Of a DNA stretch of 36,860 bases, positions 3,950 through 32,617 are shown piece after piece. Source of the DNA: a virus; the UHGV virus genome UHGV-1448156; one strand, given 5' to 3'. The notes beneath the pieces are model-generated. The model was not told the origin of the DNA. It did no database searches and worked only from the letters and a program-made list of their open reading frames with translations. The stretch's first letter is position 1. Each line of letters begins with the position of its first letter. A program made the position numbers and the translations under genes.

Positions 3950-4302
3950 TACGCCTCCGATGTAACAGTCGTTATTCCATAAAGAGTGTCGATTTCAGCG
4001 GAAAACATGACACGTCGGGTCGTGGTATCCACCGTCGTATTGAAAGAGAGGATTGATTTAACGCCCCGCGTTTCGAGGATGCGCTTACGGATCGCCAGGT
4101 TGTAGGTTTCCGGCTTCTGCTTACCGAGTACGGACTGGATCCACGGAGTCCCCTCGGTGGTATCGAGAAACCATTGCCCATACCACAATTCGAATCGCGT
4201 TTTTACCGCCTGCGCCACGGCCTCCGGTGAGTTAATCAGCCAGGTATCATCGCCGCTGCCAAAGGTGTAATCACCGTCGGCGTCTTCGCGTCTGTATCGC
4301 AT
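3949..4302 (-). CDS. Baseplate wedge protein (gpW / Mu gp46-like)
   Basis: 117 aa between V-like and J-like genes. Confidence 0.5.
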   Translation of the reverse strand: MRYRREDADGDYTFGSGDDTWLINSPEAVAQAVKTRFELWYGQWFLDTTEGTPWIQSVLGKQKPETYNLAIRKRILETRGVKSILSFNTTVDTTTRRVMFSAEIDTLYGITTVTSEA

Positions 4303-5054
4303 CAGTTCACCCCGTCTGTGTTGCTTCCGCCTCGCTGAACCCCGCTGTGCGTGTGCGTATCATCAATTGACTTGCCGTTAGCTTTAACGGTACCGATAAA
4401 CTCGACAGCGCCGGTGATTTTGGATGCAACTCCAGAAGCAACAGACCCCACCATTCCACCCAGCCAGGACAGTAGCCCGTGAATGGTTACTTTCGCCGAG
4501 AAGTCGGCCAGCGGGGTAACTACATCCAGACCGCCAGGCGCTACGATTTTAATTTTCTGCGTATCCGGATTAAGGTCGATGTACGTACTTCCATCAACAC
4601 TTCGAAGCTGCGCCGACGTGGTGCTGACATTCTTAATTTTGTTGGGCTGAGATATTTGACCCACTGAGCAGGTGGCGTCGGACAGGTCATGTATGCGGTC
4701 GTCGACAGGTTCCTGCACTCCACCGTTTTGCCAGAAGAAATCAATACAGCGGTCTTGAAACTTAAGTTCGCACTCATCGCCGGGGCTCACCGGCAACGTT
4801 AAAGTAACTCCCCCGGCCGTTGGGAATACCACGGGAACATCCACCAGCAGCGGGTAAGGTTTTGTCACCCGGTTACCATCGTTATCGATCTCAACGTAAC
4901 GGATAGCAGGCTGCACAACCGCCGTAACCGCGTCAGGATCGAATGACTGAATAATGCCAGGCAAAGCGACGCGGATCTGGTTCTTTGTTGTTTCCCGTTC
5001 AGATTTGAATGTTTCAGCAAGGTCGCCGCTGCGGGTCTGGTCAGATACTGCCAT
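4302..5054 (-). CDS. Baseplate spike/assembly protein (gpV / Mu gp45-like)
   Basis: 250 aa; ATG 5054 with SD TGGAG; first gene after the cassette terminator. Confidence 0.55.
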   Translation of the reverse strand: MAVSDQTRSGDLAETFKSERETTKNQIRVALPGIIQSFDPDAVTAVVQPAIRYVEIDNDGNRVTKPYPLLVDVPVVFPTAGGVTLTLPVSPGDECELKFQDRCIDFFWQNGGVQEPVDDRIHDLSDATCSVGQISQPNKIKNVSTTSAQLRSVDGSTYIDLNPDTQKIKIVAPGGLDVVTPLADFSAKVTIHGLLSWLGGMVGSVASGVASKITGAVEFIGTVKANGKSIDDTHTHSGVQRGGSNTDGVN

Positions 5055-5073
5055 TTAGTAGGCTCCAGAAAGC

Positions 5074-5099
5074 AAAAAACCCGCCGGGTGGCGGGTTTA
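5074..5099 (-). terminator. Rho-independent terminator closing the toxin cassette
   Basis: Minus-strand RNA AAACCCGCC-ACCC-GGCGGGUUUUUUG immediately after stop (5097-5099) of the 138-aa gene; A-run on the other side makes it potentially bidirectional. Confidence 0.6.
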
Positions 5100-5513
5100 T
5101 GAATCGTAGGTTTTCAATTTTTCGAGTTCATCAGGAGGAAGTTCTATGAAGGTTTCCTCTGCTAATTTTATCAGCCGGGGAAGCATCGAATCAGCTTGCT
5201 GATGAGCGTTTGGGCTGATGATTGCCAATATCTGATAGTGTTCATCGATATAAAGATGCTGAGCATATACCAAAAAATTATCACATGTCCGTTCACTCAG
5301 AGATGCTTCTGGAGGCCAGGGTTTATCGCCAGGTAGCTTTAAGTGAATTTTCCTGATGTTGGCAGCCATCGCATCATAGTTACGTTCAAAACCGCCTAAC
5401 GAACCAAAACACCAGAACTGGGAACCCTTTGAAATATAATCGGCAAGCATTTGAGCATACTTATGTGCTGCAGCTAAATGACGCAATTCTCCCGTGATAC
5501 TGACTTTTGCCAT
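5097..5513 (-). CDS. YafO-family-like toxin (putative ribosome-dependent mRNA interferase), 138 aa
   Basis: ATG 5513 lies 1 nt after the stop of the upstream gene (TGAcATG). Segments KIHL, PWPP, NFLVYAQ, ILAIISPNAH and LAEETF align with my recollection of E. coli YafO; not searched. Confidence 0.5.
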   Translation of the reverse strand: MAKVSITGELRHLAAAHKYAQMLADYISKGSQFWCFGSLGGFERNYDAMAANIRKIHLKLPGDKPWPPEASLSERTCDNFLVYAQHLYIDEHYQILAIISPNAHQQADSMLPRLIKLAEETFIELPPDELEKLKTYDS

Positions 5514-5514
5514 G

Positions 5515-6087
5515 TCACATCCATTTAGGGGCGTTGGCTCCCAGCATCTTATGCGATGTTGAGATCAGTTCAATAGCCTCTTCACGGGTAACATTATCTG
5601 ACAAGAGTTCAGCCTGGAAAGGCTGCGATTGCCTAACTTCAGCGGCCAACTGAGTTGCAGTGTTCTCGACGGCGGTCAACGCACGAACATATTTGCGTTT
5701 TAATGGGCGCAACATTTGCAGATGGCCTTGCCACATAGGGGACCTTTCCGCTTCAGAGAACATATCCACTAAATGTCCTTTAGCATTTCGGCATGCCTTG
5801 GCAAGACCTTCGAGATGGGATAAAAACCCTTCCGGAAGCTCATCAACAATGATTCTCCCATTTCGAAAAGCTTCGAGATGAGACATGCCTTCCTTCGCGG
5901 TATTTTCGATTTCTTGAGCGCGTGCAGCAATCGCGGTACAACGACGAAATGCCTCTTCAGCATCTAATCGTTGTGGCAGTTCACAAGCATTAGAGATCAG
6001 GGGTTTGAAAGCACCGTTAACAGCTTCCTGAACCTGATTCATTTGTTGTGTAATTGTTGCCAGCGCAAATGCGTAGCTAATCGCCAT
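5515..6087 (-). CDS. Unknown 190-aa protein in the antitoxin position
   Basis: ATG 6087 with SD GAGGG 9 nt upstream (track start 6093 is TTG). Predicted helical, no HTH recognised; unlike YafN/Phd. Confidence 0.5.
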   Translation of the reverse strand: MAISYAFALATITQQMNQVQEAVNGAFKPLISNACELPQRLDAEEAFRRCTAIAARAQEIENTAKEGMSHLEAFRNGRIIVDELPEGFLSHLEGLAKACRNAKGHLVDMFSEAERSPMWQGHLQMLRPLKRKYVRALTAVENTATQLAAEVRQSQPFQAELLSDNVTREEAIELISTSHKMLGANAPKWM

Positions 6088-6100
6088 ACCCAATCCCTCT

Positions 6101-6115
6101 GTCGTTTTAAACGAC
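6101..6115 (-). promoter_or_regulatory. Palindromic operator candidate GTCGTTTTAAACGAC
   Basis: 15-bp inverted repeat between the candidate promoter and the SD of the 190-aa gene. Confidence 0.3.
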
Positions 6116-6202
6116 TATACACCACTTATTCAAAGTTAGCTGAGCGCTAAAAGTTCGCAAAGTTTAGTGATCATGCAACCACCTAGCAAGCGATAAAAAA
6201 TC

Positions 6203-6230
6203 ATTATTTAGTGAATGTGAACAAACTCAA
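6203..6230 (-). promoter_or_regulatory. Candidate sigma70 promoter of the cassette
   Basis: Minus strand -35 TTGAGT, 16-bp spacer, -10 AATAAT in the 160-bp non-coding gap 6094-6255. Confidence 0.3.
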
Positions 6231-6255
6231 CACTATGCAGAAATGTAACTTTTGG

Positions 6256-6603
6256 TTAACCAGAAACCTTTTTGCATGGAAAGGAACCGATGATTTTCGG
6301 TGCATCCATGCTGTTCTGCAGAAGCTGGACGTTCAGGAAACGCGTTTCGGTACCCGGACGATGGATATACTCAAACCCATAGTTGTTGCCATCTTTAGCA
6401 GGCATCAGTCCCATTTTGATCTGCATGCCTGTACCGTCTTTGCCCAGCATCTTAACTTTTTGGGATGTTACGGTTTCGCCATTGATTTTAAACAATGAGT
6501 CAGGGATTGCGTCCATACGAAAGTTACCACATTGCATCGTTATGGTGTTTGCACTTGCGCCAACAGACGCTAACGCCAGCAATGAAAAAATCCATCGTTT
6601 CAT
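6256..6603 (-). CDS. Secreted protein of unknown function (115 aa, signal peptide)
   Basis: ATG 6603 with SD GAGGGGG, 3 nt after the hub gene stop. N-terminus MKRWIFSLLALASVGASA then mature part with two Cys. Track ORF start 6684 lies inside the hub gene. Confidence 0.5.
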   Translation of the reverse strand: MKRWIFSLLALASVGASANTITMQCGNFRMDAIPDSLFKINGETVTSQKVKMLGKDGTGMQIKMGLMPAKDGNNYGFEYIHRPGTETRFLNVQLLQNSMDAPKIIGSFPCKKVSG

Positions 6604-6605
6604 TT

Positions 6606-7670
6606 CTATAACCCCCTCTGCAATGCTGTACTCGATGGCATATCCTGCGCGCCACGCGCTTCGCACATCATATCCATGTACCACGCCTGGCCCCTTGTGT
6701 CGCCAGTGTACATAATCCCGCGCACAATATAAACGCCATCTGTTGCGATGCTGGCAGGCTGCGCCGTGGTGCCGCTGAGCGTGATATTTCCGTCCGTGTT
6801 CTGGTCGGTGATCTTCCCACCAGCCATCGCGATATCATTGTTCGACAGCGCGGTGCGGTACACGGAAGCCTGATCCAGCTGAATAAGCCCGTTAACCCGG
6901 ATGTTCGGATTAATGAGCGCACGGACGTTTACGCCGTTACCGATGGTCTGCTGCGGCATGCCAATAAGCCCGGTAGCACTGTTGAGCACAATCGCTTCGT
7001 GAACATATTCGTTATTCGCCACCATCTGGCGCTGACCGTCCACGAATTGCCATGTTGCGCCACATTGCCCGGCTACGTTATCCATTAGATGCCGCGTCAT
7101 GCCAAAGAGCACCCGCCCCCGGGGGAATACAGTAGCAGGCATTTCAGGCGTCAGGCCTTCGGTCGCGCCTTTGGCTTCGAAGTCTTTCATCAGCGCACGG
7201 TTCACATCAGCGACCGTGTAACCGGCAGCCAGCGTCTGTGAGGTTATACTGGTGGCAAATGCCAGATCCGTATCTGCTGCCTGAATCAGGACATAGGAAT
7301 CAATAGGGCTGTCTTTTCCTGTGACCGAGTAGCGAATTTCTCCGCTGAAAATCAGCCCGTAGTTGCGGCCATCACTCTGGCCCACATCTGCCGCGTCGAC
7401 TTCGCGCACGGTCCCGACGTCGCTTGCCGCCACCTCAGGCGCGATACCGTCGTAACCGGCAATCAGCCGCACTTTCGAAAACTCCTGCCCGGTAATTCGG
7501 TTCACAGTATCTGCCGAAAGGTTATAAATTTTGATAGTCCCTACCCGGGACGCGCTGCTGATGTTGAACCAGTCGATCGTAAAGGTGATTTTGAAATCAC
7601 TTAGCTCAATTCCCTGACCATTCCCGTCCACAAGCTGCAGCTCGAAATGTCTCATCCAGTTCTGTGACAT
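6606..7670 (-). CDS. Baseplate hub / tail protein (P2 gpD / Mu gp44-like)
   Basis: 354 aa; position between tape-measure-proximal tail genes and baseplate; SD GGAG before ATG 7670. Confidence 0.65.
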   Translation of the reverse strand: MSQNWMRHFELQLVDGNGQGIELSDFKITFTIDWFNISSASRVGTIKIYNLSADTVNRITGQEFSKVRLIAGYDGIAPEVAASDVGTVREVDAADVGQSDGRNYGLIFSGEIRYSVTGKDSPIDSYVLIQAADTDLAFATSITSQTLAAGYTVADVNRALMKDFEAKGATEGLTPEMPATVFPRGRVLFGMTRHLMDNVAGQCGATWQFVDGQRQMVANNEYVHEAIVLNSATGLIGMPQQTIGNGVNVRALINPNIRVNGLIQLDQASVYRTALSNNDIAMAGGKITDQNTDGNITLSGTTAQPASIATDGVYIVRGIMYTGDTRGQAWYMDMMCEARGAQDMPSSTALQRGL

Positions 7671-22572: not shown

Positions 22573-23133
22573 ATGATCCATACCGTACACTTCATGACAG
22601 ATGTGACAGTTGCTTCTGTATCCAGCCTTATGGATGTTTGCCTCAAAGCGATATCAAGCCCTAACCAACCAGCCTCTGAGATCAGGATTTACATCTCTAG
22701 TAAAGGTGGAGATACCGTTGCAGGTTTTACCGCATACAACTTTCTTAAGTCTCTTCCTGTAAAGGTGAAGACACATAACCTTAGTAACGTGGAATCTATA
22801 GCAAATGTTATTTTCATGGCTGGATCTGAGCGGTTTGCTAATCCTCTCTCGCGATTTTTATTACATCCTTTACATTGGGGATTTGCCGCCCCACAAGCAG
22901 ATCACCTCAGGCTTAGGGAATGGGCGGCATGTCTGGATGACGACTTGCAAAGATTTGTGCAGGTGATGAATATCGAGGCTCTCGCTGTAGCCCCAGATGA
23001 GCAAATTGACTGGGCTAATTTGATCACTTCTGCAACCATCATTGATCCGGGAAGGGCCACCGAGTTGGGTATGATCCAGAATGTCGAGGCTGCAACCATA
23101 CCCACAGATTCGATCAGGTGGTGGGTTCTGTAA
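22573..23133 (+). CDS. ClpP-fold (S14/crotonase-like) peptidase homologue, 186 aa
   Basis: IRIYISSKGGDTVAGFTAY...VESIANVIFMAGSERFANPLSRFLLHPL aligns with ClpP YINSPGGVITAGMSIY...[30 protein letters not shown] from memory; candidate Ser and His retained. Opposite strand to all flanking late genes. Confidence 0.6.
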   Translation: MIHTVHFMTDVTVASVSSLMDVCLKAISSPNQPASEIRIYISSKGGDTVAGFTAYNFLKSLPVKVKTHNLSNVESIANVIFMAGSERFANPLSRFLLHPLHWGFAAPQADHLRLREWAACLDDDLQRFVQVMNIEALAVAPDEQIDWANLITSATIIDPGRATELGMIQNVEAATIPTDSIRWWVL

Positions 23134-24895: not shown

Positions 24896-25519
24896 TTAAC
24901 GTGTGACCTCATTCAAAATGTTGTCTGCGATTGACTCTTCCTTGTGGCATTGCACGACCAGAGCGTCATACAGCGGCTTAACAGTGCGTGACCAGGTGGG
25001 TTGGGTAAGGTTTGGGATTAGCATCGTTACAGCGCGATATGCGGCGCTTGCTGGCATTCTTGAATAGCCGACACCTTTGCATCTTCCGCACTCTTTCTCA
25101 ACAACTCTCCCCCACTGCTCTGTTTTTGCTATATCAACCGCACGACCTGTACCGTGGCAATCTCTGCATCTTGCCCCCGGCGTCGCGGCACTACGGCAAT
25201 AATCCGCATAAGCGAATGTTGCGAGCACTTGCAGTACCTTTGCCTTAGTATTTCCTTCGAGCTTTGCCACACCACGGTATTTCCCCGATACCTTGTGTGC
25301 AAATTGCATCAGATAGTTGATAGCCTTTTGTTTGTCGTTCTGGCTGAGTTCGTGCTTACCGCAGAATGCAGCCATTCCGAATCCTGCTTGTGATTGCGCC
25401 ATCCCCATAGCAGCCATCACATCGGTACCGGAAAGAGAGTCAGAAGCCGTAGCCCGTGGTGAGTCACTCATCATCGGGCTTTTTGGCGAATGAAATTTAG
25501 CTACGCTTTCGAGTCTCAT
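24896..25519 (-). CDS. Q: Late antiterminator Q (lambda type)
   Basis: 207 aa MRLESVAKFHSPKSPMMSDSPRATASDSL..., matches lambda Q as recalled; ATGA-coupled to NinH. Confidence 0.9.
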   Translation of the reverse strand: MRLESVAKFHSPKSPMMSDSPRATASDSLSGTDVMAAMGMAQSQAGFGMAAFCGKHELSQNDKQKAINYLMQFAHKVSGKYRGVAKLEGNTKAKVLQVLATFAYADYCRSAATPGARCRDCHGTGRAVDIAKTEQWGRVVEKECGRCKGVGYSRMPASAAYRAVTMLIPNLTQPTWSRTVKPLYDALVVQCHKEESIADNILNEVTR

Positions 25520-31966: not shown

Positions 31967-32617
31967 ATGAATACACAACTGATGGGTGAGCGTATTCGCG
32001 CTCGCAGAAAAGAACTCAAGATTAGGCAGGCTGCCCTTGGCAAGATGGTTGGCGTGTCTAATGTTGCTATTTCCCAATGGGAGCGATCTGAAACTGAGCC
32101 CAATGGCGAAAACCTATTGGCCTTAGCCAAGGCTTTGCAGTGCTCCCCTGATTACCTGTTGAAAGGAGAGGATAGTCTTTCAAACATTGCCTATCACAGC
32201 AGGCATGATCCAAGAGGTTCGTATCCTCTAATTAGTTGGGTAAGCGCAGGATGTTGGATGGAAGCTGTAGAGCCATATCATAGGCGTGCAATAGATAACT
32301 GGTACGACACAACGGTAGATTGTTCTGAAGACTCTTTTTGGCTCGACGTTAAAGGCGATTCAATGACTGCCCCGGCAGGACTGAGTATTCCTGAGGGGAT
32401 GATTATTCTCGTCGACCCAGAAGTCGAACCACGTAATGGAAAGTTGGTAGTCGCCAAACTTGAAGGAGAAAACGAGGCGACATTCAAAAAGTTAGTTATT
32501 GATGCCGGTAGAAAATTCCTGAAACCACTCAATCCACAATACCCAATGATTGAAATCAATGGGAACTGTAAAATCATTGGCGTTGTCGTTGATGCCAAGC
32601 TAGCAAACCTTCCTTAA
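31967..32617 (+). CDS. c2: Immunity repressor C2 (P22 type)
   Basis: 216 aa MNTQLMGERIRARRKELKIRQAALGKMVGVSNVAISQWERSE..., matches P22 C2 as recalled; LexA-like C-terminal domain. Confidence 0.9.
   Translation: MNTQLMGERIRARRKELKIRQAALGKMVGVSNVAISQWERSETEPNGENLLALAKALQCSPDYLLKGEDSLSNIAYHSRHDPRGSYPLISWVSAGCWMEAVEPYHRRAIDNWYDTTVDCSEDSFWLDVKGDSMTAPAGLSIPEGMIILVDPEVEPRNGKLVVAKLEGENEATFKKLVIDAGRKFLKPLNPQYPMIEINGNCKIIGVVVDAKLANLP

Follow-up and report, generated by a model that had tools for sequence, protein, structure and literature searches.

In the baseplate region of UHGV-1448156, a viral genome sequence of 36,860 nucleotides (nt) that was analyzed as a whole (positions 1 to 36,860) and is referred to here as the window, two small genes form what appears, from its sequence, to be an autonomous mobile moron. 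The unit spans positions 5077-6189 and consists of a sigma-70-type promoter, a leader with two stem-loops, a gene for a 190-amino acid (aa) helical partner protein, a translationally coupled gene for a 138-aa toxin of the YafO family and a terminator, all cassette features being on the minus strand (Table 1). With some reserve, we favor reading the pair as a toxin-antitoxin-type module that would serve in phage exclusion and/or in retention of the element carrying it. The window itself is a Brunovirus (SEN34)-like myovirus prophage with lambdoid regulation.

Results

The 138-aa protein is a member of the YafO toxin family

The initial annotation of this locus had proposed two minus-strand open reading frames (ORFs) coupled through the sequence TGAcATG, the second of them aligning along its length with YafO-family toxins. 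Both ORFs and their junction are present, and the resemblance was borne out. The 138-aa protein matched Pfam PF13957 (YafO_toxin) with 62.6 bits against a cut-off of 25 (E 4e-17; profile positions 12-98 of 101), and all its homologues carry PF13957 as well; it is 25% identical to the YafO protein of E. coli K-12 over nearly the full length, and its structural model adopts a RelE/HigB-type (BECR) fold, so that a toxin-family signal is found by profile and by structure alike. The NCBIfam equivalog for E. coli YafO, NF007377, in contrast, yielded 31.4 bits against a cut-off of 153. Since the protein passes PF13957 and falls far below the NF007377 cut-off, it belongs to the YafO family without being the orthologue of the K-12 toxin.

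Four residues, H57, R75, H104 and E119, are invariant across this toxin family and K-12 YafO. We assume these to be candidate catalytic residues, the pattern being the one expected of an active nuclease of the superfamily; no solved YafO structure was found. The protein also carries an acidic C-terminal extension of 18 residues, and its gene is preceded by a weak Shine-Dalgarno (SD) sequence. YafO is counted among the BECR-fold mRNA-cleaving toxins, the genes of which follow an antitoxin-then-toxin order (PMC11980606), and the K-12 protein, going by its characterization as a toxin, needs no partner to be toxic (Zhang et al. 2009, as cited in PMC11980606).

The partner belongs to a small family constrained at its C-terminus

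The 190-aa protein encoded immediately upstream of the toxin yielded no match in Pfam, NCBIfam or PADLOC. No consistent weak Pfam match emerged when 30 homologues were scanned, a profile search of PDB sequences returned nothing, and the only PHROGs families retrieved were of unknown function. The earlier claims that this partner is unrelated to YafN and has no recognizable helix-turn-helix (HTH) both held, in that its profile aligned with YafN at an hhalign probability of 0.2% and no DNA-binding or other domain was found. The predicted structure (pLDDT 78.9) is all-helical, with four long helices, its C-terminal parts comprising a low-confidence linker (residues 157-163), a helix (168-181) and a PKWM tail.

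The partner family is small, with 35 clusters found in 5.8 billion proteins and about 40 once profile searches are counted in. Of 1.84 billion representatives searched exhaustively with a profile, 14 were members, and broadening the profile added only a Hafnia protein. Members occurred in 3 of 185,579 species genomes and on 45 viral contigs, and all those with a source name come from Enterobacterales or phages thereof. Six residues (W119, M125, L137, S178, H179 and W189) are invariant throughout the family, its remotest members (22% identity) included, a pattern that identifies the C-terminal segment as the most constrained part of the protein. A metal or redox site involving C35 and C50, which are invariant in close homologues, was considered and dropped, both cysteines being absent from the remote members. 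We found no paper naming the family or its accessions.

The two genes are closely linked and under purifying selection

A gene matching the YafO profile directly follows the partner gene, with a 1-nt gap, abutting or overlapping, in 53 of the 54 loci encoding a partner relative. The gap is 1 nt in 49 of the 54, the remaining toxin-bearing loci having 0 nt or an overlap, and even the remotest partner relatives (P0066, P0073, P0074 and P0076; E about 1e-4) are each followed by a PF13957 gene. The cassette thus consists of two adjacent, co-directional and coupled small genes, one of them with a known toxin fold, which is the organization by which type II toxin-antitoxin systems are recognized. 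The ratio dN/dS was 0.04-0.12 for both genes where dS was unsaturated; both are under purifying selection, the partner being the faster-evolving of the two.

Two loci carry a damaged toxin gene. The toxin is frameshifted twice next to an intact partner in E. coli GCA_027276785.1 (L072:2862-3372), and a deletion in Salmonella Braenderup (L071:3001-3411) has removed toxin residues 1-115 together with both partner ends, joining partner residue ~185 to toxin residue 116. Decay of this kind is what a harmful 138-aa protein would lead one to expect, although the numbers are small. The one exception to the linkage, locus L063 (6001-6570), has an intact toxin and an interrupted partner frame, which is shifted by -1 in a run of G and restored by +1 in a run of A 160 nt later. 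We did not retain it as a case of a broken partner beside an intact toxin, as two compensating changes in homopolymer length resemble sequencing error; the break is probably of that origin and would be significant if real.

A related pair in the P2 hotspot may share the C-terminal part of the partner

One of the closest known arrangements is number 123 ('YafO_toxin') in supplementary file 6 of Rousset et al., a 197-aa hypothetical protein followed by a 126-aa YafO toxin that occurs 24 times in the P2 hotspot (PMC9122126). Like the cassette, it is a two-gene prophage unit in a variable cargo locus, in which an uncharacterized protein (~197 aa in arrangement 123) precedes a YafO-family toxin, and the two toxins are homologous (hhalign probability 99.5%, 34% identity). 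Over their final 65 residues the two partners align end to end, including a LI..(S/E)H..LG...P motif, in a weak match of the arrangement 123 partner to the partner profile (probability 40%, pairwise E 2.9e-4), whereas their N-terminal 130 residues are unrelated. Arrangement 123 further differs in that its toxin, at 126 aa, is devoid of the C-terminal extension, and in the type of phage and the locus that harbor it. It is not named among the systems that the main text of that study reports as tested or active (PMC9122126). This comparison gives a weak suggestion of a common C-terminal YafO-binding module borne by different N-terminal domains.

The same comparison bears on the main rival to the toxin-antitoxin reading, namely that the partner is the sensor, activator or chaperone of a two-component abortive-infection system, the YafO-like nuclease staying inert until it is switched on through the partner upon detection of a phage component, in which case loss of either gene would not be toxic. 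That the P2-hotspot relative appears to keep the C-terminal 65 residues and to have its N-terminal domain swapped is what one would see with exchangeable sensors, and the partner of the cassette is twice the usual antitoxin size, with a 155-residue helical-bundle domain and no DNA-binding motif; PARIS shows that two-gene systems other than toxin-antitoxin pairs exist (PMC9122126). The operon is built like those of antitoxins and toxins, however, in its gene order, its tight coupling and the weak SD before the toxin gene, a toxin pseudogene beside an intact partner was seen with no convincing converse case, and the toxicity of K-12 YafO by itself, as reported by Zhang et al. 2009 (cited in PMC11980606), does not fit a nuclease that awaits activation. 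We consider an activating partner quite unlikely.

The cassette is mobile, optional cargo

The initial annotation had described the cassette as inserted between the baseplate hub and spike genes, in the manner of a moron. The region is right, except that a gene for a signal-peptide protein intervenes on the hub side. Comparison of the hub-spike junction across related prophages revealed that the cassette is variable cargo and not a structural component. In a survey of 5426 complete E. coli genomes, 336 of which matched a query spanning the region (not all of them keeping both flanks), the cassette was present in 37, always full length, 98.6-100% identical and chromosomal. Relative to prophages with other cargo, homology stops at 5098-5100 and resumes at 6253-6260, and the sequences found between these same junctions encode a DUF2335 protein, a DUF4282 protein, a 243-aa plus 142-aa pair and others. 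The G+C content of the cassette is 41-49%, compared to 52-58% in the flanking structural genes. The moron layout was confirmed in silico by a conserved promoter, a terminator, presence/absence polymorphism and a deviating G+C content.

Several further contexts were found. Diverged myovirus prophages, with a hub 58% identical, carry the cassette in their hub/spike slot. In many siphovirus-type prophages it separates the tail-chaperone gene (DUF6246) from the tape-measure gene, in the Flyfo siphovirus Tbat2_3 it follows the tape-measure gene, and in another prophage type it adjoins an AntA-family gene in a baseplate region. In Serratia quinivorans (L008-L010), it is located 255 bp upstream of hsdR-hsdM-hsdS in an island near cysS/folD, preceded by a near-identical promoter and first hairpin. 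A distant member of the family was found in Hafnia alvei, where a P2-like prophage carries it with a gpA-family replication gene on one side and the portal gene on the other. Rousset et al. (2022, PMC9122126) showed this position, the P2 gpA/gpQ locus, to be a hotspot for anti-phage systems. Taken together, these contexts indicate that the unit is horizontally mobile between unrelated phage and island settings. Among viral contigs with a 98-100% identical cassette (L020-L037, L041), the spike protein is 58-96% identical, and this divergence next to a near-identical cassette points to mosaic exchange around it. The 1159-bp cassette segment of the window is 100% identical to that of E. coli BY63, BY68, MMC-J-0020, PEC145 and PEC411.

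These contexts also inform the possibility that the pair is a pure addiction or selfish module, which penalizes the loss of its carrier DNA, thereby stabilizing the prophage or island, and affords no protection against other phages. Its anatomy, with coupled genes in antitoxin-then-toxin order, is that of plasmid and prophage stabilization modules, it was encountered on mobile elements only, and it has no PADLOC match. Yet relatives sit in an anti-phage hotspot and one copy has a type I restriction system as its neighbor, the alternatives found in the slot are small accessory genes and not maintenance functions, and a large partner that does not bind DNA would be unnecessary for simple addiction. 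Pure addiction seems unlikely to us on this evidence and, within the toxin-antitoxin reading, a role in defense is plausibly the more probable of the two.

A function in the lytic cycle was also weighed, whereby the nuclease would be made with the late tail genes and degrade host or competitor mRNA, with the partner timing or restraining it. The cassette is in the late operon, on the same strand and downstream of the Q-antiterminated promoter, a position that entails its transcription in the late phase of lytic growth. Against such a function, the cassette comes with a conserved promoter and a terminator, it is also found outside phages, in the Serratia island, and it is missing from most relatives of the carrying phage, for which it must therefore be dispensable. 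We regard a lytic-cycle role as very improbable.

Among the slot cargo inspected, no validated defense system was found. The 243-aa plus 142-aa cargo of E. coli EPSSH018 (L004:1720-2879) includes a 142-aa protein with a weak match to PADLOC HEPN_IX (E 0.009) and no Pfam match, and may be another nuclease-type pair. SEN34_21, a 138-aa gene in the same slot of phage SEN34, was considered as a possible YafO relative and found to be unrelated.

A conserved promoter and two stem-loops precede the partner gene

Regulatory sequences were compared across 26 distinct upstream regions, from which 16 leaders could be aligned. The non-coding gap said to bear the promoter is present and measures 168 bp rather than 160 bp. 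Within it, a TTG in the -35 element and TA.ACT in the -10 element are invariant at 17-bp spacing in 16 of 16 aligned leaders from different genomic contexts, and this promoter is common to the copies in the Serratia island and in siphovirus-type prophages. The promoter of the initial annotation, TTGAGT/16/AATAAT, exists further upstream, but fared less well: a scan of the 2-kb region turned up two sites of its 9/12 grade compared to 2.7 expected by chance, and it is missing from cassette copies outside the hub/spike-slot prophages, so that it stands at chance level and is not conserved beyond these prophages.

Stem-loop 1 is 100% paired in the 16 leaders, with compensatory changes at two pairs (GC to UA and UA to CG). 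Stem-loop 2 corresponds to a palindrome that had been noted 5' of the SD and viewed as an operator. Aligned by hand, the 16 leaders show sense-strand pairing at each of the 93 positions of the stem, with 81 Watson-Crick and 12 G.U pairs, and one T-A to A-T change is compensatory. In a DNA palindrome or an antisense RNA, the 12 G.U pairs would turn into C.A mismatches; by our reading they reflect at least five independent A-to-G changes, all of them on the tolerated side (roughly p 0.03). A hairpin was predicted for stem-loop 2 in 13 of the 16 leaders, and both palindromes sit downstream of the -10 element. Because G.U pairs are tolerated on the sense strand, an RNA stem-loop 5' of the SD is preferred over a symmetric operator, and we modestly favor the former; the palindrome stands, in other words, and its operator reading is disfavored. 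An Rfam scan of the leader gave no match and its folding energy is unexceptional (z -0.32), so it is the substitution patterns that carry the RNA-hairpin interpretation. The stem-loops could add control at the RNA level.

In distant versions of the leader (Pantoea L007 and L060, a Serratia-type pair and L011), hairpin 2 is replaced by a G+C-rich stem and a T-run that lie between the conserved promoter and the SD and resemble a terminator or attenuator. CCTGACA and TGTCAGG in the Pantoea leader could form a long-range closing stem.

At the other end of the unit, the hairpin and T-run that had been seen in front of the spike gene proved to be a strong intrinsic terminator, which overlaps the toxin stop codon (5099-5097). 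An ACCCGCC-loop-GGCGGGT hairpin followed by a T-run is found at or just after the toxin stop codon in about 16 of 24 contexts, as judged by eye and including siphovirus ones, and because the same type of hairpin recurs in this manner the terminator is part of the traveling unit. All alternative cargo alleles of the E. coli slot are closed by the same hairpin. Four different alleles in E. coli (window 5056-5098; L002, L003 and L004) are followed by an identical stretch comprising the terminator, TTTTTTGCTTTCTG and the spike SD, and in siphovirus contexts that are unrelated (L005 and L056) the cassette is followed by nearly the same hairpin with GCTTTCTG. The terminator may act as a recombination joint for the exchange of cargo.

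Neighboring genes

The features of the cassette and its surroundings are compiled in Table 1. The gene on the upstream flank, a weak match to a baseplate hub family, is annotated as 'baseplate hub' in related phages. The protein encoded between this gene and the cassette (phrog_3443) has a clear signal peptide (MKRWIFSLLALASVGASA/NT), and its identity is only 62-99% in comparisons that give 95-99% for the hub. This secreted accessory protein evolves fast and might be an exclusion factor. Elsewhere in the window, between the terminase and lysis regions, a plus-strand ORF of 186 aa (22573-23133) encodes a ClpP-protease domain (46.5 bits); opposite in strand to the surrounding structural genes, it may be an accessory gene.

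Table 1 Coordinates of the cassette, its regulatory elements and other genes in the window.
Feature	Position	Strand	Details
Variable cargo segment in hub/spike slot	5099-6255	-	delimited by homology breaks and G+C shift
Earlier candidate promoter, unsupported	6203-6230	-	TTGAGT/16/AATAAT; 9/12 consensus match
Conserved sigma-70-type promoter	6161-6189	-	-35 TTGCTA 6189-6184, 17-bp spacer, -10 TAAACT 6166-6161
Non-coding gap 5' of partner gene	6088-6255	-	168 bp
Stem-loop 1	6136-6150	-	TTAGC-GCTCA-GCTAA; a few bases after predicted transcription start
Stem-loop 2 (noted palindrome)	6101-6115	-	GTCGTT-TAA-AACGAC; directly 5' of SD GAGGG
Shine-Dalgarno sequence	6095-6099	-	GAGGG; 7 nt before partner ATG (6087); GAGGG/AGGGG kept in aligned leaders
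Helical partner gene	5515-6087	-	190 aa from ATG; stop 5517-5515; family phrog_35514
Coupling junction	5511-5517	-	TGAcATG: partner stop, one base, toxin start
YafO-family toxin gene	5097-5513	-	138 aa; ATG 5513-5511; stop 5099-5097 included
Intrinsic terminator	5077-5098	-	AAACCCGCC-ACCC-GGCGGGTTT and T-run; 9-bp stem, 6 G-C pairs, 4-nt loop
Baseplate spike gene, downstream flank	4302-5054	-	spike N-terminal domain (123 bits) and GpV apex motif
Signal-peptide protein gene	6256-6600	-	114-115 aa; phrog_3443; directly after hub gene in every slot version
Baseplate hub gene, upstream flank	6606-7670	-	weak match to baseplate hub gp41 (22.6 bits, cut-off 27)
Q antiterminator	24896-25519
cI-type repressor	31967-32617

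Discussion

In lambdoid phages, the Q antiterminator reads through late-operon terminators during lytic growth. Given the cI/Q regulation of this prophage, late-operon terminators would be read through lytically and would stop moron transcripts in the lysogen. We therefore picture the cassette in the lysogen as being transcribed from its own promoter and stopped at its own terminator, and in lytic growth as being traversed by transcription that phage Q carries through that terminator. The partner would bind the toxin and keep the nuclease inactive, probably via its conserved C-terminal helix and Trp-containing tail. Should the partner be lost, outcompeted or triggered, the toxin would cleave mRNA and translation would stop, a possible trigger being an infecting phage that shuts off host expression or engages the helical domain of the partner. 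The outcome would be abortive infection or exclusion of the competing phage, and/or the loss of prophage-cured cells.

Several observations weigh against this proposal. Most type II antitoxins carry a DNA-binding domain, and neither HTH, ribbon-helix-helix (RHH), AbrB nor Phd domains were detected with Pfam in the partner and 30 homologues; searches with its predicted fold returned generic helical-bundle matches only. Neither cassette protein matched PADLOC-DB v2 at E values up to 0.1, and no data on toxicity, binding or phage resistance were found for the family in the literature. The isoelectric point (pI) of the toxin is 5.8 (5.2-6.5 in the family), a mild acidity that is atypical for RNA-binding toxins, an objection softened by K-12 YafO being itself neutral (pI 7.0). 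The asymmetry of decay, finally, is based on three cases, and neutralization through the C-terminus, which we consider probable, on conservation and the weak profile match described above (probability 40%).

How does the pair compare with known systems? With YafN-YafO of K-12 (dinB-yafN-yafO-yafP), it has in common the toxin family PF13957, the shared His, Arg, His and Glu residues, the partner-first order and the abutting genes. In contrast to the K-12 system, the toxin of the cassette is not the orthologue and bears an acidic 18-residue C-terminal extension, its 190-aa helical partner is unrelated to YafN, a 97-aa antitoxin of the Phd/YefM type, and it occupies a prophage cargo slot with a promoter of its own, as opposed to the SOS-regulated dinB operon. 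RelE/HigB/YafQ-type systems, whose BECR-fold toxins are ribosome-associated mRNA endonucleases, differ in that the cassette toxin has extra N- and C-terminal helices relative to those toxins and that their antitoxins carry HTH, RHH or Phd DNA-binding domains. The layout, on the other hand, is that of tail-region morons such as HK97 gp15, a superinfection-exclusion moron in the tail-gene region: a promoter-gene-terminator unit, poorer in G+C than its flanks and subject to presence/absence polymorphism, lodged among late structural genes. It departs from HK97 gp15 in encoding a toxin-partner pair instead of a single membrane protein, and in occurring in several unrelated slots.

The P2-hotspot relative weakly suggests, at the level of sequence, exchangeable N-terminal domains on a common YafO-binding C-terminal module. 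Pushed further, the 155-residue domain might directly sense an incoming phage protein and thereby free the YafO nuclease from a C-terminal tether, the cassette then being one member of a modular sensor-tether-nuclease immunity family with interchangeable N-terminal sensors. This extension is a speculative one, which we hold to be rather unlikely. Given the repeated lodging of the cassette among tail genes, a tail or baseplate component would be one candidate trigger of such a sensor.

The YafO toxin family, the moron layout, the swapping of partners among type II systems and a catalogued 'hypothetical + YafO' hotspot pair were already known, and the cassette is an extension of known type II partner swapping and not a new kind of system. 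New here are a partner family, now defined and found strictly linked to the toxin, a conserved promoter, a two-hairpin leader, occupancy of at least five slots, and a possible shared C-terminal module. YafO toxins have been reported without a partner in Pseudomonas prophages and tailocin clusters, and members of the family are often annotated as orphans in such settings, no antitoxin being recognized alongside (PMC10449497, PMC4684702). The present locus defines a partner family that lies outside all domain libraries and is obligatorily linked to one YafO subfamily, and the C-terminal module of this partner may be common to a second partner family in the P2 defense hotspot. The hub/spike and tail-chaperone/tape-measure junctions are cargo slots worth mining. 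If validated, the cassette would provide a compact, portable unit of 1.1 kb in which to study the control of a RelE-type nuclease by a partner that does not bind DNA.

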